From NCBI GenBank assembly GCA_030606485.1, contig JAUWGH010000005.1, positions 60,001-92,000 on the forward strand: a stretch of DNA of 32,000 nucleotides. The letters run 5' to 3'. Under the pieces are notes generated by a model. It had not been told where the DNA came from. It ran no database searches and saw only the letters and a program-made list of their open reading frames with translations. Source of the DNA: Promethearchaeota archaeon (GTDB lineage: Archaea; Asgardarchaeota; Lokiarchaeia; Sigyniarchaeales; SOKP01). This document shows, one piece after another, positions 2,309 to 19,942 of this stretch (positions are counted from its first letter, which is position 1; each line of letters starts with the position of its first letter). Both the position numbers and the translations under genes were made by a program.

Positions 2309-3148
2309 TTAAACTCTTTTCTTATATTCTTCTAATAACCGTTCTGGAGAAATATATCCTCGAATATTTTTTGGACCTTTAAAATATACTGCTTTAGGAA
2401 ATAATTTAAAATAAAGAGCATTTGTAGGGCAATTTCGGGTACATTTAAAACAGATCATGCATCTATTGTGATCGATTATTAGTTTTTCATTAAAAGATAT
2501 TGCTCCTGTGGGGCATCCTTTCTCACAAGTTTTGCATTGGATGCATTTTTCTGAGTTAAATCCAAACAAACGACTTAAAATGTTATAAGATGGTCTTTCT
2601 AATACTTTAAAGTAAGCATAAATTACTCTACTAAATGGCATAGGTATTGATGACCAATCTAAAGTGCCTTTTCCCAATCTTATTATTTTACCAAGTTTAA
2701 TTCCAAATTGAAAAGATCTTTCAATACTTCTTCTTGACCACATAACATATTTAAATAAATTCGTTTCAAATAGTGAATCCCTTGTAGGAACTATTATTTC
2801 AATTGCCCCGATAAACTCACAATTTTTTAGTTCCAATGTTTTTCTTATGTTTCTAATTGATGGTCCAGGAAGTCCAGCACTCGTATCGAATAAAAAAAAT
2901 TTTATTTTTCGATTAACCCTTGGAATTTTTTTAACCCAATCTCTAATATTGGGAGTGAAAGACATGGCATAAACTGGGGCTCCAATTCCAAATACATTAA
3001 TTCTATTAAAATCTAAATTCTTTTCCTTTAAAGAATTAAATGGAATCAATTCAGTTTCAAAATTAGCGAATTTTAACCCTTCACTAATTAATTGAGCTAT
3101 GTATTCTGTATTACCAGAAGATGAAAAATATATAATTGGAATTTTCAT
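2309..3148 (-). CDS. EFR1-family flavodoxin-ferredoxin fusion
   Basis: N-terminal YFSSSGNT flavodoxin loop; C-terminal CIQCKTCEKGCP and CMICFKCTRNCP [4Fe-4S] motifs. Confidence 0.9.
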   Translation of the reverse strand: MKIPIIYFSSSGNTEYIAQLISEGLKFANFETELIPFNSLKEKNLDFNRINVFGIGAPVYAMSFTPNIRDWVKKIPRVNRKIKFFLFDTSAGLPGPSIRNIRKTLELKNCEFIGAIEIIVPTRDSLFETNLFKYVMWSRRSIERSFQFGIKLGKIIRLGKGTLDWSSIPMPFSRVIYAYFKVLERPSYNILSRLFGFNSEKCIQCKTCEKGCPTGAISFNEKLIIDHNRCMICFKCTRNCPTNALYFKLFPKAVYFKGPKNIRGYISPERLLEEYKKRV

Positions 3149-3173
3149 TATCTAATTATTTTATAGTTTTTAG

Positions 3174-3207
3174 CAAAAAAAAATTTGGCGATTAATCAAT
3201 ATTCGCC
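3174..3207 (-). terminator. Possible terminator (GGCGA/TCGCC stem followed by a U-tract)
   Basis: 5-bp GC-rich inverted repeat (3187-3191 / 3203-3207) followed on the minus strand by a T run, about 30 nt after the 3237 stop. Confidence 0.25.
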
Positions 3208-3236
3208 TATTTGAATTTTAATTTATTTAGAATCTT

Positions 3237-3908
3237 TTAATAGACCCAACCAAGAATTCCCAAGCAAACTATATTGGCTATTATGGCAAATCCATAAATA
3301 ATTCCCAAAACTTTAAGTTTATTCTTATTGTCTCTCATGTCATGTACCCAAAATGTAACAACATAGAAGTGAAAGTATCCGAGAAAAAAAATCAACCAAA
3401 TCCCAGCGATAGAAGCGTTCCAAAAGGGATATTCCCAAACTAAAAGACCTCCAATATTCAAAAGAACCTCCACGAAAACACAAAAAACTGAAAATCCTAT
3501 AGATAAGGCCCAGCGATTCGGAATTCCCAAAATTTTTGCATTCTTATCTTCTGGAAGTGCATTTGCGAAAACGATGCCCGATATTAAGAACATGAAAACA
3601 ATTTCAACGTTCCAACCCATCATTATCCGCAATGCTGTTTCCCCTGGGGTAGTCCAAAACGCTGAATGTTGTGTAAGATGATATACCCAACCATTCCAAG
3701 TTTCATTGATAAAATCCATGCCAAAAAGAGCCAGACCAGAATAAACAACATTCCAATTACCAGATTCACGGGCTTTCTTGATCTCGATAGTATAGATATA
3801 TAAAACAATCGCAAGGAGGGGGATTACATACCATTTAAGCGTTGAAAGATCTCTAAGCCCCTCCAGCGCCTGTAGTGAAGCTTCTGTACTCATATTTATC
3901 AAAACCAT
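3237..3908 (-). CDS. Conserved hypothetical polytopic membrane protein
   Basis: About 6 hydrophobic segments with polar motifs (DFINETWN, GWNVEIVFMF, FVEVLLN..G.LVW). Start probably at MSTEAS (3893). Confidence 0.75.
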   Translation of the reverse strand: MVLINMSTEASLQALEGLRDLSTLKWYVIPLLAIVLYIYTIEIKKARESGNWNVVYSGLALFGMDFINETWNGWVYHLTQHSAFWTTPGETALRIMMGWNVEIVFMFLISGIVFANALPEDKNAKILGIPNRWALSIGFSVFCVFVEVLLNIGGLLVWEYPFWNASIAGIWLIFFLGYFHFYVVTFWVHDMRDNKNKLKVLGIIYGFAIIANIVCLGILGWVY

Positions 3909-4023
3909 TAATTTTTATTTAATAAGTAATTTGCCTTAACGATTTATAAAATTATATGATAAGCTTTTTACAATGAATATTAATTAAAAAATTAGCGAAT
4001 TCTACCTAAGTATAGATTTATAT

Positions 4024-4350
4024 TTATTTTTCAATTAATTTGCATAATTTATTTTTTAATTCTTTTTTTTCAGTTAATGAAAGATTTTTTGAATCTTTTC
4101 CCATTGTATCGTAGTAATCGAGAGGAATATTCTCTGAAAGTGAAAGAATTAGAATTATTGCATTTTGAATTAAATTCTTAATCTCAATTAAATTACTTGA
4201 TTTTTCTTTCTTCTTAAATAATTTCATAAGTTCAATTATCATTGATTCCTTCCATCTCTCTGTTTCTTCTGCGTTTCTATTTTTCGAAGAAAAAAATTGA
4301 AGGATTTTATCATAATAATCAATTTCCGAGAAATTATCAAAATCTTTCAT
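4024..4350 (-). CDS. Hypothetical helical protein (~108 aa)
   Basis: Part of the 166-aa ORF; start moved to ATG 4350 (MKDFDNF) because GAGGT lies about 12 nt upstream and the longer N-terminus looks like intergenic AT sequence. Confidence 0.6.
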   Translation of the reverse strand: MKDFDNFSEIDYYDKILQFFSSKNRNAEETERWKESMIIELMKLFKKKEKSSNLIEIKNLIQNAIILILSLSENIPLDYYDTMGKDSKNLSLTEKKELKNKLCKLIEK

Positions 4351-4560: not shown

Positions 4561-4815
4561 TTACCAAGATATCTTTATTGCCTTTTCAGGGCATGCTTTA
4601 ACACAATAGAAACAGCGCGTACAAACAGAGGGCCATACTGGTGTGATTCGCCAATATTGTGGATTATATGGATCCTCTTCTTTATAACCTAACGCTTCAT
4701 GCATCAAAAAGACACATGGATCACATACTTCAAGACATTTATGGCAATCTCTGGGGTCGACCTTCCCATTCTCTCCACATTTTGAATAATCAATTCTTAT
4801 TTTTGTTTTACTCAT
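4561..4815 (-). CDS. 2x[4Fe-4S] ferredoxin
   Basis: C-x9-CHKC-x3-C and CTRCFYCVKACP motifs; 8 nt downstream of the previous gene. Confidence 0.85.
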   Translation of the reverse strand: MSKTKIRIDYSKCGENGKVDPRDCHKCLEVCDPCVFLMHEALGYKEEDPYNPQYWRITPVWPSVCTRCFYCVKACPEKAIKISW

Positions 4816-4823
4816 ATAATCAC

Positions 4824-5696
4824 CTAGTATTTTCCATCAAATCCTGGATATTCTTCTCGTGGAATAAGGCGAAGTGCATCATTTTTGCATGCATGCCGGC
4901 ATATACCGCATCCAAAACATTTATCATAATCTATTATAACTCTATCTATTGAGGGAATATAGCGTATAGCACTGAATTGACACATGGATACGCATGCTTT
5001 ACATCCCTCGCATTTATCTTGGTCTAATTGGATAATATATTCTGCTTTATAGACTACATTCAAATCGAAATTATTTCTAAGACGAAGTCCGCCACATTCA
5101 GGGCTTTCACACGAGCATATAGCACATATATAGGGGACCGGCTGAAACCATACGGAAGCAATATATCCCTTTTTGTTATGCTCTTCCAATCTTTGCATAG
5201 CTTCTTCGCGATCAATTCGTACTACTCTATTTTTTGGAATAAAACGAGGAAGTTTCTCAATAATCTCAGATAAAATACCAAAATTGATACAAACTGCTTC
5301 TTTTTTTCCCCGCTGCATCCAACGGCACATACAATAATTTTCGATAATCGGTTCTGCAGCTAATTCAGAGAGAATAATTTTGCCATCTTCTAAAGGAATA
5401 ACTTGTCCAAAATGACCATCAGCTCTCAAAGGATTTCTTTTTTTGGTCTCTTCCTTATGAATCATCCCCTCAACCACCCGACGTATCACTCTCCCTATAA
5501 TAGGCATTTTAAGTTTATATCCCAGACCTATAGAAGAAAGTCCCATTATCTTTCTAATAAAAACCGTCTCAAAATTCATCCATTGCTCTGTTAAATAATC
5601 TTCTAAATTTAAATCCTTGGCAAGTTGATCGGAATAATTTTTGGCGTTCATATACCATTTCTTACCCGCTCCATGTTTCATACACCAATCACACAT
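4824..5696 (-). CDS. Cys-rich 4Fe-4S dicluster protein
   Basis: N-terminal CDWCMKH, internal CMCR..C and CAICSC..PEC, C-terminal CEGCKACVSMC and CFGCGICRHAC. Confidence 0.85.
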   Translation of the reverse strand: MCDWCMKHGAGKKWYMNAKNYSDQLAKDLNLEDYLTEQWMNFETVFIRKIMGLSSIGLGYKLKMPIIGRVIRRVVEGMIHKEETKKRNPLRADGHFGQVIPLEDGKIILSELAAEPIIENYCMCRWMQRGKKEAVCINFGILSEIIEKLPRFIPKNRVVRIDREEAMQRLEEHNKKGYIASVWFQPVPYICAICSCESPECGGLRLRNNFDLNVVYKAEYIIQLDQDKCEGCKACVSMCQFSAIRYIPSIDRVIIDYDKCFGCGICRHACKNDALRLIPREEYPGFDGKY

Positions 5697-8354: not shown

Positions 8355-9242
8355 ATGGGATCAGAAAAAAGAGACTATATTGAAAAAATAAAAAAATCTG
8401 AAGAAAAATACCGCACACTTATTAATAGTATAGTAGATGTTATTATAGAATTAGATTCAAGTGGAACATTTACTTTTGTAAATCCGCGAGTTTTTGATTT
8501 GTTTGGGTATCAACCGGAAGAAATGATTGGAATAAATGCATTTAATTTCGTCCATCCAGAAGATATACCAGAAATTGCAAAAAAAATGAACGATGCAATA
8601 TATTCAAGAGAAATTATAGAAGTTATCTATAGAACACGCCATAAAGATGGACATTATATTGTAGTTCAAGCGAGAGGAGGGATGTATAATGATAATGAAA
8701 AAATCAAATTTATTGGAGTTATTAGAGATTATAGCGAACTAAAAGAAGCAGAACAAAAAATAAAAGAATCCCAAGAAAATTATAAAGAATTATATAAAAA
8801 GTTAGAACAAAAAGTCTCAGAAACAACCATAGATTTTAAGGAATCAGAAAAAAAATTTCGTCATTTATTTGAAACATCTCCATTTGCGATATTTCTACTA
8901 AAATTTATAGGTATAATTATAGACTGCAATTCTGTTGCTGAAAGATTATTTAACCTAAAAAAAGATGAAATAATTGGCAGAAATTTTCTAGAACTGGCAG
9001 CATTTCCTTCAAAAGCATATACTAAGATTGAGAATGCTTATAAAAAGTTGTGTAGAGGAGAAAAGTTAAATCCTATTGAGATTCAAATTCATACCGAAGA
9101 TGATGAATTAATTTGGGTGAATGTTATAAATACTTTAGTTAAATTACACAATGAAATCCAAATTCAAGTTATCGTTCAAGATATTTCTGAGCAAAAACTA
9201 ACTGAAAAGGCTTTGCAACCTTCAGAGCAAGAAAGTCCTTAA
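8355..9242 (+). CDS. PAS-PAS sensor protein with no output domain
   Basis: Two PAS S-box units (EEKYRTL..VHPED..RDYSE; EKKFRHLFE..VQDISEQK) joined by a coiled coil; no H-box or HATPase. Confidence 0.85.
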   Translation: MGSEKRDYIEKIKKSEEKYRTLINSIVDVIIELDSSGTFTFVNPRVFDLFGYQPEEMIGINAFNFVHPEDIPEIAKKMNDAIYSREIIEVIYRTRHKDGHYIVVQARGGMYNDNEKIKFIGVIRDYSELKEAEQKIKESQENYKELYKKLEQKVSETTIDFKESEKKFRHLFETSPFAIFLLKFIGIIIDCNSVAERLFNLKKDEIIGRNFLELAAFPSKAYTKIENAYKKLCRGEKLNPIEIQIHTEDDELIWVNVINTLVKLHNEIQIQVIVQDISEQKLTEKALQPSEQESP

Positions 9243-9270
9243 TTTAAAATAGTTTTATTTTCATTTCAAC

Positions 9271-9284
9271 TTCAATTGTGAAAT
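9271..9284. repeat. 14-bp direct repeat, copy 1 (TTCAATTGTGAAAT)
   Basis: Exact match to 10681-10694. Confidence 0.6.
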
Positions 9285-9362
9285 ATTTAATTAGATTCTT
9301 TATACTATAATTTAATTTCCTCAATTGTTCTTAAATATTTTAGTAAAGATTAATCTTTCTAT

Positions 9363-10184
9363 TTATTTCGGTTTTATGGCTTGAATTTTTATACTTTGAA
9401 TGGTATGGTTAAGATCTTTAATTACCCCTTTTTCTGAATGTTGATTAACCAATAAATCAATTGTGAAGGAAGATTCCCCTAAAATATCAATATCTTGAAA
9501 GCCAGCTTCTCTTATAAACTCTAGATACTGCTCTTTTAGAACTGCACCAGCGACACAACTAACATATGCCGCAGAATTATTTTTGATGAACTCCGGTAAT
9601 TCCTTTAAAAGTACGATATCTGAAACCATCATCCTTCCTCCTGGCTTTAACACCCTAAAGGCTTCCTGAAATACCCTTTCTTTTTCTGGTGAAAGATTAA
9701 TCACACAATTCGAAATAATAACATCTACTGAATTATCTGCAACCGGTAAATTTTCAATCTCACCGAGCCTAAATTCTACATTTTCATAATTCCCCTTCTC
9801 TGCATTTTCTCTAGCTTTATCGATCATATCTGGTGTCATATCTACTCCTATAATTTTTCCACTTTTGCCTACCCTATTCGCTGCAAGAAAACAATCAAAT
9901 CCTGCTCCTGAACCCAAATCAAGAATATGATCTCCTTCCTTTAATGAAGCAAGAGCTACTGGATTCCCACAACCAAGACCTAGATTTGCCCCTTCAGGAA
10001 CATTTCTAAGATCTTCATCTGTGTATCCAATCTTCTTACTTATATTTTCGGTAGAAGTATCACAACCACAATACGAGTTTGTAGTAGGAAAACTTGAATT
10101 TATAGGAGTACAACATAATATTGATTGTTTTGCTATTCTTCCATAATTTTTTCTTACAATTTTTTTAACATCTTTTTCATCCAT
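9363..10184 (-). CDS. arsM: Arsenite S-adenosylmethionine methyltransferase
   Basis: LGLGCGNP, LDLGSGAGFDC, DVIISNCVINL and SCVAGA motifs carrying the ArsM cysteines; Cys-rich N-terminus (CC, CGC). Confidence 0.93.
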   Translation of the reverse strand: MDEKDVKKIVRKNYGRIAKQSILCCTPINSSFPTTNSYCGCDTSTENISKKIGYTDEDLRNVPEGANLGLGCGNPVALASLKEGDHILDLGSGAGFDCFLAANRVGKSGKIIGVDMTPDMIDKARENAEKGNYENVEFRLGEIENLPVADNSVDVIISNCVINLSPEKERVFQEAFRVLKPGGRMMVSDIVLLKELPEFIKNNSAAYVSCVAGAVLKEQYLEFIREAGFQDIDILGESSFTIDLLVNQHSEKGVIKDLNHTIQSIKIQAIKPK

Positions 10185-10214
10185 TTTTTTCTCACTTTAA
10201 AAAATCTTAATATA

Positions 10215-10502
10215 TTATTTATTATTGATATCCTGCACCATCGGACCGAGAAAATTCCTTACCATTCCTCCCAAATACTCAACCTTAATTAAAGATAAGC
10301 AACAGACTTCCCCATTTTTTTTCATACTTACAACTGCAAATTTCTCACCCTCATTAATATTTGCTTTCTCCCTTAAATCTTTAGAAAAATATATTTGCCC
10401 CTTACTATCTAGGGTTACCACTGATTCAACTCTACAACAAGTAGAATTCATTTTCTCAGGTTCGCAACAAATCTCTTCTTTTTCTTTTTTTTGTGAACTC
10501 AT
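10215..10502 (-). CDS. hgcC: HgcAB-associated protein HgcC-like (AbrB/MazE fold, Cys-rich)
   Basis: CCRVESVVTLDSKGQ..SKDLREKANI..GEK and EVCCLSLIK....GMVRNFLGPM match the HgcC family signature as I recall it; 30 nt upstream of arsM. Confidence 0.8.
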   Translation of the reverse strand: MSSQKKEKEEICCEPEKMNSTCCRVESVVTLDSKGQIYFSKDLREKANINEGEKFAVVSMKKNGEVCCLSLIKVEYLGGMVRNFLGPMVQDINNK

Positions 10503-10528
10503 ATTTACATATAATAATTCTTTGGGGA

Positions 10529-10560
10529 TATTTAAACTCTACGGATTCTCCGGAATATCC
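10529..10560 (-). promoter_or_regulatory. TATA box plus upstream 18-bp operator-like palindrome of the hgcC-arsM operon
   Basis: TTTAAATA (10536-10529) is 26 nt from the ATG; GGATTCTCCGGAATATCC at 10543-10560 has 14 of 18 positions dyad-symmetric. Confidence 0.55.
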
Positions 10561-10680
10561 AGAAATTAAAAATTATGATAGATTTAATTTTACTACTATT
10601 CTATGAAAAATCATTAGAGTAAAAATAAGAATCATAAATAAATTCCGTTAGCTTCTCAATAAAGACGTAAATATAGATTT

Positions 10681-10694
10681 TTCAATTGTGAAAT
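10681..10694. repeat. 14-bp direct repeat, copy 2 (TTCAATTGTGAAAT)
   Basis: Exact match to 9271-9284, 1410 bp apart. Confidence 0.6.
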
Positions 10695-10820
10695 TTATTT
10701 TAGAAATAATTGCTTTTTTAAAAATCTCATATAAAAATTATGAATAAAAAACTGAAATTAAGAAGAAAAAATTAAGTAAATAAAATCATCAAGATAATTA
10801 ACTTAGATTTAAATTTATTG

Positions 10821-11348
10821 TTATTTTATATGTGCGTTATTGTGAGTCCTACAAATTCTAGGAAACCATCTAGCCACTCTCTCGGTATAACTTACCCAAT
10901 CTTGTCCAAATCGTCTTTTTAAATTAGGTTCCTCAATATAAACGATAAATCCATGTATTGCAAGAATCAAAATTGGTAGTATAATAAACATTGCTACAAG
11001 ATCCAGAAGAAATCCAAGACCTGCAAAAAAAAAAAATTGACCCTCCATCATAGGGTTCCTTACATGTCCATATGGTCCATAAGTGACCAACCTCTTGGTA
11101 GGCTCAGAAAACCCAGTAGTTCCCTGGCCTATCTTAAATTGAAGCAAACAACTCCAGAAGATAAGAAACAACCCAAAAGCAGACAATATAAGACCAAATA
11201 TCCTGAACAAAAAGTTGAATAAATTTGGTAATTTCAAAACATTATTAAGCCATATTGCAAAAAAGATTACAAAGAAATACTCACAAATTACTCCAATGTA
11301 ATGTGCAATAGTTCCTAATCTTTTTGCATTGATTTTTATTCTCTTCAC
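10821..11348 (-). CDS. Isoprenylcysteine carboxyl methyltransferase/PEMT-family membrane methyltransferase
   Basis: GQGT....P..RLVTYGPYGHVRNPM, IEEPNL.RRFG..W..Y..RV.RW motifs; GTG start. Confidence 0.88.
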   Translation of the reverse strand: MKRIKINAKRLGTIAHYIGVICEYFFVIFFAIWLNNVLKLPNLFNFLFRIFGLILSAFGLFLIFWSCLLQFKIGQGTTGFSEPTKRLVTYGPYGHVRNPMMEGQFFFFAGLGFLLDLVAMFIILPILILAIHGFIVYIEEPNLKRRFGQDWVSYTERVARWFPRICRTHNNAHIK

Positions 11349-15189: not shown

Positions 15190-16764
15190 TTATAAAAAAG
15201 AGCTTATTGTACTAATCCAAGTATTGAATTGATCCAAAAGTTCCAATCGGTATTCAGTAGTTATTTTAAAGAACAACAAAGGAATCATCTTTTTCTCGAG
15301 ATATTCATTCAAGTTAAATTCTTCGATGAGTCGAGACCAGACTGCCGTTTGAGTATGGTCTTCGGAAGTTCTTAAGCCTATTAACACACTTGTATTTTCA
15401 TTTATCTTATCTAAACCATTAATTACTAAATTTCGCCATTCTAAATCAATAGATCTTTTATTTCTTGCATCAAATATAAATAAAACTCCATCTGAGTCTA
15501 CAATTTCTCCAATATGATTGATATAATTTTTAATAATAACTTTATCATTAAATAAATAGATTTTTTCTAATTCTTCATTTTTAACTATACTAATTTCGCC
15601 CAAATCTCGAAATTCAGTAAACAATTGTAAAGCAGGATTCCAGTATTTATTTAAACCAATAAATGATAAAATTAATTTTCCTTTTACATTAATTATTTTA
15701 TTAATTTCTGAAATTAGATTTGCTTTTACAATATTCTCCTCGTCGAGTTGTGATTTTACTATATAGTGATAGGAGATTAAAGAGAACGCATCTTCGACAT
15801 TTTCCCCTGTTTTTGCACTAGTTTCTATATAAGAAGCTTTTAACTTATTTGCTAGTGAAACACCTTCTTGATAAGATATTTTTCTTTCCTTACTTAAATC
15901 GGTTTTATTCCCCACAACAACAACCGGAATATCTTTACTAATAAAACCTTTTAATTCATCGTACCAATTTTCAAGATTCTCAAAAGAAGATACATTTGTT
16001 AAATCGAATACTAAAAATGCTGAATGAGCTCCTTGATAATAAGTCTTTCTAACTCTTCGAAAGAATTTTTGGGCTCCAATATCCCAGATCATTAAATTTA
16101 TTGCTGTATTTAGAAATTTATAGTTATGTGTCAAAATATTTAAACCAATTGTCGCACGGTAATCGGTTGAAAATCTGTTTTCAACAAATCTCATTACGAT
16201 TGATGTCTTACCAACCGCGTGGTCACCAACAATAATAAATTTAAATTTATATTCTCCCCTGGCGAGTCTCATTTGATAAATTTGATTTTTCAACCTATCA
16301 AACTCTTGTCTTTCATCATATTCAAAATTAGGAATATATGTTTGAATTCGATTAATATCATCTTCTGTTAATATTTGGGCACATTTTTCAGCTAAGAAAT
16401 AGGCATATGGAGCAGTTTTATCAATTGAAGCGAGTGTATTTAATATAATGCTTACAGTAGCATTATCTTTCACAGATACAAATAGAATTCTGGAATCCTC
16501 TGTTTCAAAGCTCGCAGTTCCCCATTTTTTAAAGGAAAATTCATACCTAATTCTTTCTAGAATGGGGTTTACAAGAGAAGAAAGTACCGATATTGAATCT
16601 GTTTTTACTTCAAGAGAATCATCTAATGTTTTCTCTTTAAGAATGTTATCTAATTTCGCAGCAATTATCAACCCTTCATCGTCAGAAACAATTACCGCTT
16701 CAACATCAGGTACAACATCCATAAAATTTTTTAGCAAACTATTAAATAATTCTGATTTTGACAT
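15190..16764 (-). CDS. Roadblock/LC7 + Rab-like small GTPase + degenerate G-domain fusion protein
   Basis: N-terminal V.AVIVSD.EGLIIA (Roadblock); GDHAVGKT, TIG, WDIGAQ, NKTD, ETSAK; extra ~165-aa alpha/beta C-domain. ATG 16764 with GAGGA upstream is preferred over TTG 16788. Confidence 0.9.
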   Translation of the reverse strand: MSKSELFNSLLKNFMDVVPDVEAVIVSDDEGLIIAAKLDNILKEKTLDDSLEVKTDSISVLSSLVNPILERIRYEFSFKKWGTASFETEDSRILFVSVKDNATVSIILNTLASIDKTAPYAYFLAEKCAQILTEDDINRIQTYIPNFEYDERQEFDRLKNQIYQMRLARGEYKFKFIIVGDHAVGKTSIVMRFVENRFSTDYRATIGLNILTHNYKFLNTAINLMIWDIGAQKFFRRVRKTYYQGAHSAFLVFDLTNVSSFENLENWYDELKGFISKDIPVVVVGNKTDLSKERKISYQEGVSLANKLKASYIETSAKTGENVEDAFSLISYHYIVKSQLDEENIVKANLISEINKIINVKGKLILSFIGLNKYWNPALQLFTEFRDLGEISIVKNEELEKIYLFNDKVIIKNYINHIGEIVDSDGVLFIFDARNKRSIDLEWRNLVINGLDKINENTSVLIGLRTSEDHTQTAVWSRLIEEFNLNEYLEKKMIPLLFFKITTEYRLELLDQFNTWISTISSFL

Positions 16765-16901
16765 AAGATCCTCAAAATGAAAATACAAAAAAATATTAAT
16801 ATATCTTTTGTATATTTTAATGAAAATAATTAAGAAAAAAATAAATTTTTTAATATCTAATCACTCTTATAGCGTAGAAACTTTATTGAATTTGATACAA
16901 A

Positions 16902-17495
16902 ATGCCTACTTGTATAATTTGTCATGAAAATATTGAAATAGAAGAGAGTTCTAGCATAAAAAGCTATACTTGTCCAAACGGACATCAAGTTCATAGAAAA
17001 TGTTTAGAAGATTGGTTAGTTCATTCCCAAGTATGCCCATTATGTGCTGAAAAATATGACTCAAATACAATTTCAGAATTTACAGAATATTTTGATAAAA
17101 TAAAGGAACAAAAAGAGCAAGAAAAACAGATAAAAGCTGATATGGAACTTGAAAAAGTTATTAGTAATATTGCAGATGATATTATTCTTTTAGAAAAATT
17201 GGAACTTCCACGAAAATTAATCAAACAAAAGGAGTTTAAAAAGGCATTAGAAAAGTTATTTGCTTTGATAGATGATAACAGTCAAAATATGGATGTTTTA
17301 TTTCTAATAGGAAAAACGTTTTATTTAGATAAACAATATGCATTGGCTGTTAATCATTTAATGAAACTAATAAAAAAAGATTTTAAATATCCTCAAGGTT
17401 TTTATTATTTAGGAAAAACATATCAAGCCTTGGGTCTTAATGACAAAGCAAAATGGGCATTTGATCGAGTTCCATCTGAAGATTCAAAGTCCTAA
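16902..17495 (+). CDS. RING-H2 finger + TPR protein (putative E3 ubiquitin ligase)
   Basis: C4-x2-C7-x16-C24-x3-H28-x2-H31-x2-C34-x3-W38-x6-C45-P-x-C48, charged helical linker, 2-3 TPRs (LFLIGKTFY, FYYLGKTYQALG). Confidence 0.88.
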   Translation: MPTCIICHENIEIEESSSIKSYTCPNGHQVHRKCLEDWLVHSQVCPLCAEKYDSNTISEFTEYFDKIKEQKEQEKQIKADMELEKVISNIADDIILLEKLELPRKLIKQKEFKKALEKLFALIDDNSQNMDVLFLIGKTFYLDKQYALAVNHLMKLIKKDFKYPQGFYYLGKTYQALGLNDKAKWAFDRVPSEDSKS

Positions 17496-17519: not shown

Positions 17520-18932
17520 ATGGAAAAAATATTTTGTTTAACAATTGCAGGAACCGACCCAAGCTGTGGTGCCGGAATTCAGGCTGATATTAGAACTTTT
17601 GAAAAATTTGAAGTCTATCCTTTTTCCGTTATTACTGCTGTTACATATCAAACGGCAGATTCATTTTCAGGGTATTTTCCGATTCCAATTGAGTCTTTAG
17701 AGGAACAATTAAAAATATTATTTGAAAAATATCCCATAAAATATGCAAAAACTGGTATGATTCCAACAAAAGAATCTGTAAAAATTATCGCAGAATATTT
17801 AGATAAATATCAAGTACATTACGTTGTTGATCCAGTAACTGTTTCTAGCGTTGGAGTGAGACTAGCAGAAGAAGGTACTGAATCAGAGCTTAAAAAAACT
17901 CTCTTCCCAAATGCACAAATTATTACTCCTAATCTTAAAGAAGCAGAGTATTTCTCAGGTATTAATATTAAAACACAAGAATTTGATGATATTGAATTAA
18001 TGAGAAAAGCAGCCTTAGAAATTTTATCTCTTATGACTAATGAGAAAATTGAGCATAAATCAAAGGCAGTTATTATTAAAGGGGGTCATCCTGAAAAAAA
18101 CAAAATAGCTGACATAGCATTAATATCTGATTTTGAAAACAAGAAAAAAAAACAATATTTCTTAAAATTCTTAAAAGATCTAAAACCAATTGTACAAAAT
18201 GTTCATGGCACTGGATGTGTTTTTTCAGCTGCTTTAACAGCTGCATTAGCCATTAAAAAGGATTTATATTTTGCAATCCAAAATGCAGAAGAATTTTTTG
18301 ATGAGAATTTTGAAAATATCACGAAAATTAACGATAGAACATATATTCTTACATTGAATTATTCACCAGAAAAAAAAGCAGTTTTAAATCAAGTAAAAGA
18401 AATTTATAATTTTATTTCAAGTTCAAAAAAATTCTCAAGATTAATTCCAGAAGTTAGAACAAATATCTCTGTATCTTTACCTAATGCACAATCGAAAATT
18501 GACGTTGCTGCGATTGAAGGGCGAATTAGTATCATTAATGGGTATCCTAAAGCCATAGGAAAAATAAAATTTGGTGTATCTGATCATACAGCAAGATTGA
18601 TATTAACCGCTAAAAAATTTGACAATTCACTAAACATTGTAATTAATATGAAATATGTTCCGGATTTAATACAAAAATTAGAAAACGACTCATTCTTTAA
18701 GATTGCGGAAATAGACAGAAGTAAACAACCTAAAAATATAAGCTTAAAAGAGGAATCAACAATGCAGTGGATAATAAAAAAAGTTTTTGAACAACATGGA
18801 ACAATTCCAGATATTATATGGGATAAAGGTGCAACTGGTAAAGAGCCAATCATGAGAGTTTTTGCAAAAGACCCAGATGAAATGATTATGAAAATTGAAA
18901 AAATGTTAAATTATTTAGAAAAATCTAATTGA
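17520..18932 (+). CDS. thiDN: Bifunctional HMP/HMP-P kinase / thiamine-phosphate synthase ThiD-ThiN
   Basis: TIAGTDPSCGAGIQADI, KGGH and HGTGC.FS (ThiD); LIPEVRTN, FGVSDH.AR and GKEP (ThiN). Confidence 0.92.
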   Translation: MEKIFCLTIAGTDPSCGAGIQADIRTFEKFEVYPFSVITAVTYQTADSFSGYFPIPIESLEEQLKILFEKYPIKYAKTGMIPTKESVKIIAEYLDKYQVHYVVDPVTVSSVGVRLAEEGTESELKKTLFPNAQIITPNLKEAEYFSGINIKTQEFDDIELMRKAALEILSLMTNEKIEHKSKAVIIKGGHPEKNKIADIALISDFENKKKKQYFLKFLKDLKPIVQNVHGTGCVFSAALTAALAIKKDLYFAIQNAEEFFDENFENITKINDRTYILTLNYSPEKKAVLNQVKEIYNFISSSKKFSRLIPEVRTNISVSLPNAQSKIDVAAIEGRISIINGYPKAIGKIKFGVSDHTARLILTAKKFDNSLNIVINMKYVPDLIQKLENDSFFKIAEIDRSKQPKNISLKEESTMQWIIKKVFEQHGTIPDIIWDKGATGKEPIMRVFAKDPDEMIMKIEKMLNYLEKSN

Positions 18933-19069: not shown

Positions 19070-19942
19070 TTGGTATATAAACTGGGAATATTCTATGGAA
19101 CCGATTCAGACACAGAGATGTTAACTCAAAAATTTGTAGGTAATTTGATTAACGATGACAAATTTTGTGAATCTTGCGAGGAAATGGAAGTAAAAATAAA
19201 ATGTGATCACTGTCGAGAACATTTGAAAAGCTATGCTGATTCAATTTACTTTTATGAACAAATCGGCGAAAATCTTCCTGAATTTGTTGAAGAACCACTG
19301 GATTTTTTTCCTAAAAATCTTCCTGAAGTGGATTTCCTTTTAGTTGTGGGAATTCATCCAGACCTATTAACTGGACTTCCGGAATATTTAAAAGATCAAA
19401 ATATAAAGGCAGTTATTATTCCAATCGAAGATCCAAAATGGGTGTCTCCAGGACTTCAAAAACAAGTTTTAGAAGAATTTGAAAAATTCGGAATTCAAGC
19501 AGCATTTCCAAAACCATTTTGTTCCTTGAGTAAAGAAGTAAATGAACTAAATAGACCCGGTTTTAATGTAACCCAAGAAAGTTCTAATATTGATGAATTT
19601 ATTGATTATTTTAAGATTGGAGAGCCGATTGTATTTTTTTTAATAAGTAAAGATGGAAAAACAATTGAAGATGCACACGTAATACAATCCGCTCCATGCG
19701 GTTCTACTTATTATATTGTCCAACAATTAAAATCAAAAGAAATTAATGATAAAGAGCTTTCCCTAAATGAACGTATTAGTAAAGCCCATCACTCATATCC
19801 TTGTAATGCCTCTATGGATCAAGATAATATATTAAAGGATACAATCCTTCATATAGGTGGTATATTAGTTAGAAATGCCGTTAGAAGAGTATTAAATCTT
19901 AAGGAAGATGAGGGATTTAAACTTTCTTACGTTATCGTTTAA
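19070..19942 (+). CDS. DUF166 family protein
   Basis: C..C...C..CR, HPDL, PKPFCSL, SAPCGST, HHSYPC.ASM motifs; TTG start. Confidence 0.85.
   Translation: MVYKLGIFYGTDSDTEMLTQKFVGNLINDDKFCESCEEMEVKIKCDHCREHLKSYADSIYFYEQIGENLPEFVEEPLDFFPKNLPEVDFLLVVGIHPDLLTGLPEYLKDQNIKAVIIPIEDPKWVSPGLQKQVLEEFEKFGIQAAFPKPFCSLSKEVNELNRPGFNVTQESSNIDEFIDYFKIGEPIVFFLISKDGKTIEDAHVIQSAPCGSTYYIVQQLKSKEINDKELSLNERISKAHHSYPCNASMDQDNILKDTILHIGGILVRNAVRRVLNLKEDEGFKLSYVIV

Follow-up and report, generated by a model that had tools for sequence, protein, structure and literature searches.

A RING-H2/TPR protein of Lokiarchaeia, divergently encoded from a Roadblock-GTPase, as a candidate ubiquitin ligase

The RING-TPR gene and its divergent neighbour

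The window analysed here is a stretch of 32,000 nucleotides, positions 60001-92000 of contig C5, from the genome of a Promethearchaeota archaeon (3.75 Mb in 13 contigs). An ORF at 16902-17495 (+), stop codon included and set in AT-rich DNA (G+C content approx. 29%), encodes a protein of 197 aa in which Pfam, an alignment of 41 orthologs and an AF2 model place a RING-H2 finger, a long helix and three TPRs; it is referred to as RING-TPR below. A gene coding for a Roadblock-GTPase of 524 aa (15190-16764 (-)) lies head-to-head with it. The ATG of this gene is at 16764 (-) and the AT-rich divergent spacer, which judging from its sequence contains both promoters, is 137 nt long (16765-16901), in agreement with the distance of the two starts given in an earlier note on this DNA. 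On the other side follows a thiamine biosynthesis gene, ThiD-ThiN (ThiDN, 17520-18932 (+)), identified by the Pfam families Phos_pyr_kin and ThiN and by the NCBIfam entry for the bifunctional HMP/HMP-P kinase. ThiDN is followed by a gene (19070-19942 (+)) whose DUF166 product carries a cluster of Cys at its N-terminal end and weakly matches the NCBIfam entry for the DUF166 (seleno)protein DfsP; it is conserved in the genus only. Neither a TPP riboswitch nor any other Rfam family was found in the window.

The RING-H2 finger extends from C4 to C48 (16911-17045 (+)), as delimited by the alignment and by profile matches to PDB entries. Pfam recognised zf-RING_2 (PF13639) at residues 3-48 with an E value of 2.9e-8 and 34.3 bits, above the cut-off of 27.3, and the score of the protein was 37.2 bits when the whole genome was searched. 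In the translation the ligands follow the canonical RING-H2 spacing, C4-x2-C7-x16-C24-x3-H28-x2-H31-x2-C34-x10-C45-x2-C48, and the full C3H2C3 set together with I6, W38 and P46 was found at the positions claimed earlier. The orthologs in the alignment share 31-96% identity; all eight zinc ligands as well as N26, W38 and P46 were invariant among the 41 sequences, and I6 was conserved in at least 90% of them. The profile of the family matched the RINGs of HRD1, ARK2C/RNF165, Arkadia, RNF24, EL5, AMFR and RNF38 in the PDB, with E values from 5e-8 to 1e-4.

The residue following the last Cys is A49 and not the Arg or Lys of a linchpin. The earlier note had located this Ala properly; however, it could not be taken as a trait of the family, since A, N, R, S, D, H and F all occur in this column among the 41 orthologs. 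Many active RINGs are without a linchpin Arg or Lys, thus its absence from RING-TPR would lower the expected potency and would not remove the protein from the RING E3 group.

The AF2 model (mean pLDDT 88.3) consists of the RING at residues 1-52, a single helix at 61-108 and TPR helices at 112-187. The long helix, rich in Glu and Lys (17082-17225 (+), delimited by DSSP in the model), is weakly conserved in sequence and differs in length among the families of the alignment. It probably keeps the RING and the TPRs apart, while its last part likely doubles as the first TPR helix. The TPR module comprises residues from about 112 to 191 (17235-17474 (+)) according to Foldseek and the Pfam families TPR_11, TPR_6 and TPR_2, which place the repeats at 131-178; TPR_11, at 137-178, scored 29.9 bits against a cut-off of 26.8. 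In the model this module and the end of the long helix together form a three-repeat TPR; Foldseek superposed the module on CTPR3 and CTPR390 over 92 columns with an rmsd of 0.9-1.3 Å, and on Sgt2, RPAP3, STUB1 and Hsp90-peptide-binding TPRs over 92 columns as well, with about 1 Å. Apart from the structural positions typical of TPRs, K155, K158, K182, W185, A186 and R189 of this part of the protein were invariant or nearly so in the 41 orthologs. The charged helical linker and the C-terminal TPRs that had been noticed in the translation were thus borne out by the AF2 model and by TPR_11, and the architecture of the protein is far beyond chance.

The divergent neighbour has three domains, a Roadblock, a Rab-like G domain and a C-terminal domain of approx. 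190 aa, assigned on the basis of Pfam Ras, PDB profile matches and fold. Pfam Ras covers residues 175-330 (E = 1e-49), and the best PDB profile matches of the G domain are Rab14, the Thorarchaeota Rab 7ezb, Ypt1 and Rab1. The N-terminal 160 aa were folded from an alignment of 18 sequences and gave the alpha-beta-beta-alpha-beta-beta-beta-alpha Roadblock fold, matching MglB, the Thor Roadblock 7f8m and the MK-D1 Roadblock3 9jue. No Pfam match was obtained for the C-terminal domain, which appears to be a degenerate G-like domain. The analogy with Rag GTPases drawn earlier is a loose one, since the G domain is Rab-like (Rab14, Ypt1, Thor-Rab) and the Roadblock is N-terminal; in a Rag/Ragulator-like GTPase the G domain would be of the Rag family and the Roadblock would be C-terminal. 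The GTPase adjacent to the RING-TPR gene is single in the source genus and forms a tandem pair in most other genera. Elsewhere in the source genome two tandem paralogs of the three-domain GTPase (547 and 545 aa; L152:526-2169 and 2399-4036 (+), contig C4, 134.5-138.0 kb) were found, 58-60% identical over residues 2-310, and at least 21 related GTPase matches in this genome have E values below 1e-30.

Distribution of the family and the ubiquitin machinery

Orthologs of RING-TPR were present in 35 of the 36 genomes of the source family (f1), in all 14 of the family of MK-D1 (f2) and in the single genome of a third family (f3), while the remaining families of the class had them patchily or as weak matches. 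When 5.8 billion proteins were searched by means of a word index, 48 matched at 184 bits or more, after which the scores fell to 46 bits; where these 48 were named, the labels were 'RING finger domain-containing protein' or 'hypothetical protein' from Promethearchaeota or Lokiarchaeota. When 1.84 billion representatives were searched exhaustively with a profile, approx. 30 full-length clusters came up before generic TPR proteins took over, and no full-length eukaryote-like relative surfaced in this library, which carries no taxonomy. The ESM Atlas contained one cluster, 100% archaeal and belonging to Promethearchaeota. Named carriers were MAGs of Promethearchaeota/Promethearchaeia (Lokiarchaeia) and Promethearchaeum syntrophicum MK-D1. 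By these sequence searches the family is confined to Promethearchaeota (Lokiarchaeia).

Some genera carry extended forms. In one of them, of 699 aa (L067:6911-9007 (-), genome G044), the RING-TPR unit is preceded by a second RING-like finger at the N-terminus, a coiled coil and a long linker of low complexity, rich in Ser, Lys and Pro, and another, of 561 aa (L070:5993-7678 (+), genome G040), has a disordered N-terminal extension. Fusion partners did not serve as a clue to the function, the long forms adding just a second RING, a coiled coil and extensions that are disordered or, at the C-terminus of some forms, undetected. A literature search found no paper on the RING-helix-TPR family, which has been annotated to date as 'RING finger domain-containing protein'.

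The earlier note had called for ubiquitin, E1 and E2 to be looked for in the genome, and all three were found. The ubiquitin is of 83-84 aa and ends in GG-I, the only UBC-type E2 has the HPN motif and the catalytic Cys, and an E1-like ThiF protein of 529 aa is encoded next to the E2. Since the E1-like enzyme and the E2 are there, the refutation of the ligase idea through a genome devoid of E1/E2 fails, and a ligase role for RING-TPR becomes plausible. The genes of the machinery are on contig C10 (E2 and E1 at 380.6-383.3 kb, with the E2 at 380617-381024 and the E1-like gene in the region of 382109-383323; ubiquitin at 752.6 kb) and the RING-TPR gene is on C5, outside any Ub/E1/E2/Rpn11 cluster, which sets it apart from the srfp of ubiquitin operons. 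The region at C10:379-385 kb (L030/L001) contains the E2 gene, that of a HAD hydrolase and, in convergent orientation, the E1-like gene, with an IS605 OrfB/TnpB-like gene and a subtilase gene alongside. Ubiquitin (L004, C10:751-754 kb) is encoded by a gene that is solitary and adjoins PUA and SepF genes. An E2 was found in 61 of 61 related genomes.

When the proteins of the source genome were scored whole, RING-TPR was the only one to pass the cut-off of zf-RING_2. The other RING-like proteins remained below it: a 662-aa protein, a 176-aa Prok-RING_1 protein and a VWA protein with zinc fingers. The first of these (L154:2737-4728 (-), contig C4, about 37.2-39.9 kb together with its neighbour) has a C-terminal RING-like finger, and its gene is 40 nt downstream of a co-directional gene of a proteasome subunit (4768-5385 (-)). 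The VWA protein, of 390 aa, with C-terminal Prok-RING_1/PHD-like fingers (L156:1308-2480 (+), contig C1, about 89.8-91.0 kb), has a weak Ssl1-like match and recalls the architecture of TFIIH p44/Ssl1.

On these grounds we regard RING-TPR as a candidate soluble, substrate-recruiting RING-type E3 of the Lokiarchaeial ubiquitin system, with a probability of roughly 60%. This reading is based on a RING-H2 finger above the cut-off with canonical spacing, on E2-contact residues kept down to 31% identity, on PDB matches which are active RING-H2 E3s, and on a confident AF2 model in which the TPR is within approx. 1 Å of peptide-binding three-repeat TPRs. It is also favoured by the presence of ubiquitin, E1-like enzyme and E2 in the same genome and of an E2 in all 61 relatives, by the sole zf-RING_2 pass, by the retention of the family in 35/36 and 14/14 genomes, and by the fact that archaeal E1/E2/RING cascades work in vitro. 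The position of the gene outside a ubiquitin operon and the unconserved linchpin weaken it. E2 binding, ligase activity and the receptor role of the TPR module are what we infer from the sequences, and the protein might operate in the following way. The RING-H2 finger would bind two zinc ions, and the conserved surface of I6, W38 and P46 would dock the UBC-type E2 of the genome charged with ubiquitin. The stiff, charged helix of approx. 48 residues would keep the TPR module at a distance from the RING, and the module would recruit a substrate or an adaptor, probably through the family-specific patch of K155, K158, K182, W185 and R189 and not through a carboxylate clamp of the CHIP/Hop type.

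RING-like fingers may also serve as plain interaction modules, which counts against an E3. RING-TPR could accordingly be a non-catalytic zinc-finger/TPR scaffold, in which the RING is an interaction or structural module without ubiquitin transfer; the lack of linkage between its gene and those of ubiquitin, E1 and E2, as well as the variation of the linchpin residue across the orthologs, would suit such a protein. However, the residues through which eukaryotic RINGs contact the E2 (I6, W38, P46) are strictly conserved, the lineage has an E2 in every genome searched, and among PDB entries it is active RING-H2 E3s that come closest in sequence. We therefore consider the scaffold unlikely and prefer the candidate E3. 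Nearly all genomes of the order encode the candidate E3, among them those of MK-D1, which is in culture, and of G055, a 6.0-Mb genome in a single contig; it therefore offers a tractable test case for substrate-directed ubiquitylation in archaea.

Gene order around RING-TPR in the Lokiarchaeial families

In order to compare the gene order, approx. 14 kb around 40 orthologs and 80 further loci from named contigs were used. The head-to-head arrangement of GTPase and RING-TPR was observed in every locus of the f1 type, 29/29 in the first set and 78/78 in the second, with spacers of mostly 109-280 nt. In these loci an IDH-family gene is followed by a Roadblock-GTPase gene, or two in tandem, encoded on the opposite strand; then come RING-TPR, ThiDN/ThiN, in most cases a ThiD-like gene, and ThiC. 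ThiDN/ThiN is downstream of RING-TPR in nearly all f1-type loci which have a downstream flank, at a distance of 24-112 nt; in the source genome the gap is 24 nt and the genes are on the same strand, so that a common transcript of RING-TPR and ThiDN is possible. The block of IDH, GTPase, RING-TPR and ThiDN was also seen in contigs labelled 'Nanopelagicaceae bacterium', Hermod-, Hod-, Thor- or Odinarchaeota (L135 (DATKTW010000108.1), L088, L099, L102, L119, L125, L131, L133 and L137); these foreign labels are probably due to mis-binning or mislabelling.

In families f2 and f3 (11 loci plus MK-D1 and a close relative; the 6.0-Mb genome G055 is in these sister families) no Roadblock-GTPase of the three-domain type was adjacent to RING-TPR. 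Its gene was either convergent with a ThiBPQ-like ABC transporter or beside ThiDN, ThiC and Thi4, and in two f2 loci an ordinary small Ras-like GTPase was upstream of it. The binding protein of the transporter scored 174.6 bits with TIGR01254 (cut-off 93.4) and the best match of the permease was ThiP. Thus the conservation of the divergent pair, which the earlier note had proposed to check, was verified for every f1 locus and not for the sister families, MK-D1 among them. Since the f2 genes adjoin the thiamine transporter or ThiDN, ThiC and Thi4, the comparison of sequences points to a thiamine neighbourhood that is older and wider than the pairing with the GTPase.

A cis-element with the core CTTAAAARTDDT, followed by TTTATTA-type boxes, was common to many f1 genera. 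It is oriented towards RING-TPR and lies 23-120 nt upstream of its start. It was present in 33 of 78 upstream regions of RING genes (loci L072-L149; e.g. L116, L124, L084) and practically absent elsewhere: 1/342 of other genes, 0/81 of ThiDN, 2/56 of ThiC and 0/30 of IDH. A few copies stood upstream of second GTPase copies. The source genus has a degenerate form only, within 16765-16901. Since the element is located in the shared spacer and some copies precede second GTPase copies, its sequence would allow the common regulation of RING-TPR and GTPase.

It had been proposed that the two genes are a dedicated, co-regulated pair, in which RING-TPR ubiquitylates the adjacent Roadblock-Rab-like GTPase or is recruited by it, the TPR being the receptor of the GTPase. 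The head-to-head order kept in 29/29 and 78/78 loci at a protein identity of only 38-50% and with short spacers speaks for such a pair, and so does the distribution of the cis-element, which favours RING upstream regions over other genes and occurs at a few second GTPase copies. Furthermore, relative G027 encodes paralogous Roadblock + Rab-like GTPases that continue at the C-terminus into long arrays of TPRs (proteins of 822 and 896 aa; L153:687-3155 (+) and 8526-11216 (+), contig C3). They flank a 1651-aa Laminin_G_3/DUF2341 protein, and the fusions hint weakly at a cooperation of TPRs with this family of GTPases.

However, the same loci retain the housekeeping IDH-family gene and ThiDN as faithfully, and the pair is missing from f2 and f3, including MK-D1. 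The phyletic patterns are uncoupled. GTPase orthologs complete with all three domains were found in f1, in family f4 and, on a different contig, in f3; the best GTPase matches of f2 span only the Roadblock and G part and are without the third domain, while f2 keeps RING-TPR, and the reverse holds for genus g16 of f4, where the three-domain GTPase is present and RING-TPR was unmatched. Mirror-tree partial distance correlations given ThiC were 0.58 for RING-GTPase, 0.42 for RING-IDH and 0.62 for GTPase-IDH; co-evolution was rejected as evidence, the residual correlation of RING and GTPase being matched by the housekeeping IDH control, so that no covariation stronger than that of the IDH controls was left. 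A conserved tail of the GTPase as ligand of the TPR clamp was likewise rejected, no conserved terminal motif having been found at its C-terminus. Adjacency of the RING gene to one GTPase is not rare in itself, because the genome has at least 21 related GTPase matches. The joint loss in G027 (92% complete), which has neither RING-TPR nor the GTPase, was discarded as a sign of coupling: ThiDN and a close IDH ortholog are gone as well, so that the whole block is absent or unassembled and the loss is uninformative.

The proposed pair thus stands as far as f1-level synteny goes, and falls short in its absence from f2 and f3, its uncoupled phyletic patterns and the lack of specific co-evolution. The pairing is explained by an inherited gene order shared with housekeeping neighbours equally well as by function, and the link to the GTPase is supported no better than ordinary inherited gene order. 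With the GTPase neighbour conserved within one family and the thiamine neighbours more ancient, we treat this link as a hypothesis and not as a finding, and hold a dedicated pair to be improbable. The fuller proposal, that in f1 RING-TPR is a dedicated E3 which ubiquitylates, or is switched by, the divergent GTPase while the cis-element of the spacer co-regulates both, appears somewhat more doubtful still. If it were true, the pair would represent an early, prokaryotic form of the control that ubiquitin exerts over small-GTPase signalling, for which RNF152 and Rag are a eukaryotic parallel, and with the GTPase as substrate two eukaryotic signature systems would be linked in a prokaryote.

The thiamine neighbours themselves raise the idea that RING-TPR is co-transcribed with ThiDN/ThiN and has enzymes or transporters of thiamine, or the regulation of these, as its target. 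The close, co-directional ThiDN/ThiN of most f1-type loci with the adjoining ThiD-like and ThiC genes, the ThiBPQ-like transporter (TIGR01254) or ThiDN, ThiC and Thi4 in f2, and the lack of an own copy of the RING promoter element before ThiDN (0/81) are in line with it. We know of no mechanism that links RING or TPR proteins to thiamine, which counts against the idea, and the transporter is convergent with RING-TPR and not co-transcribed. A shared operator of a thiamine regulon was rejected, the cis-element being absent from ThiDN and nearly so from ThiC (2/56), with no TPP riboswitch in the window. The turnover of a suicide Thi4 was also rejected: the Thi4 beside RING-TPR in L069 has TGHD instead of the Cys, and no Thi4 was found in the source genome with this protein as query. 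With a residual covariation of 0.02 between RING and ThiN in addition, a function in thiamine metabolism is the least probable of the explanations considered, and the candidate E3 remains our preferred reading.

Comparison with known systems

The GTPase neighbour has the RB-GTPase architecture known from Asgard archaea, where Roadblock/longin-GTPase fusions were catalogued by Tran et al. 2024 (PMC10933270), and its Roadblock is similar to those solved from Thor and MK-D1. What sets this family apart from the fusions of that catalogue is the third, degenerate G-like domain together with the RING gene next to it; in a term search neither 'ubiquitin' nor 'RING' occurred in Tran et al. 2024 (PMC10933270). 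RING-type E3 ligases are listed among the Asgard-eukaryote alpha-solenoid structural clusters in a 2026 preprint (PMC13734099).

The likeness to CHIP/STUB1 noticed earlier holds for the general plan, in which a helix connects a receptor of three TPRs with a finger for E2 binding, and the STUB1 TPR is one of the Foldseek matches. It does not hold for the details: RING-TPR has a zinc RING and not a zinc-free U-box, the order is reversed to RING-helix-TPR, and there is a single helix and no dimerising helical hairpin. The residues at the carboxylate-clamp positions, which we take to be those given by the TPR register, are not the K/N/N/K/R of the Hop/CHIP register.

With the RING-H2s of the eukaryotic HRD1, Arkadia-ARK2C, RNF24, EL5 and RNF38 the protein shares the C3H2C3 spacing and the Ile, Trp and Pro of the E2 contact. 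It differs from these E3s by having no transmembrane or other eukaryotic accessory domains and no conserved linchpin Arg.

The E1/E2/RING cascades of Caldiarchaeum and of the Helarchaeial ESCRT-ubiquitin operon have been reconstituted in vitro (PMC5654768; bioRxiv 10.1101/2023.07.25.550441). Their RINGs (srfp and the Helarchaeial RING E3) are, like RING-TPR, archaeal fingers in genomes with eukaryote-like ubiquitin, E1 and E2; they are small and encoded inside Ub/E1/E2 clusters with Rpn11 or ESCRT genes (PMC5654768; bioRxiv 10.1101/2023.07.25.550441). Unlike these operon RINGs, RING-TPR brings its own helix and TPR module, and its gene is far from the ubiquitin genes, between a GTPase and thiamine genes. 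Most likely, RING-TPR is thus a candidate RING E3 of archaea whose receptor, the TPR module, is part of the same protein and whose gene stands apart from ubiquitin operons.
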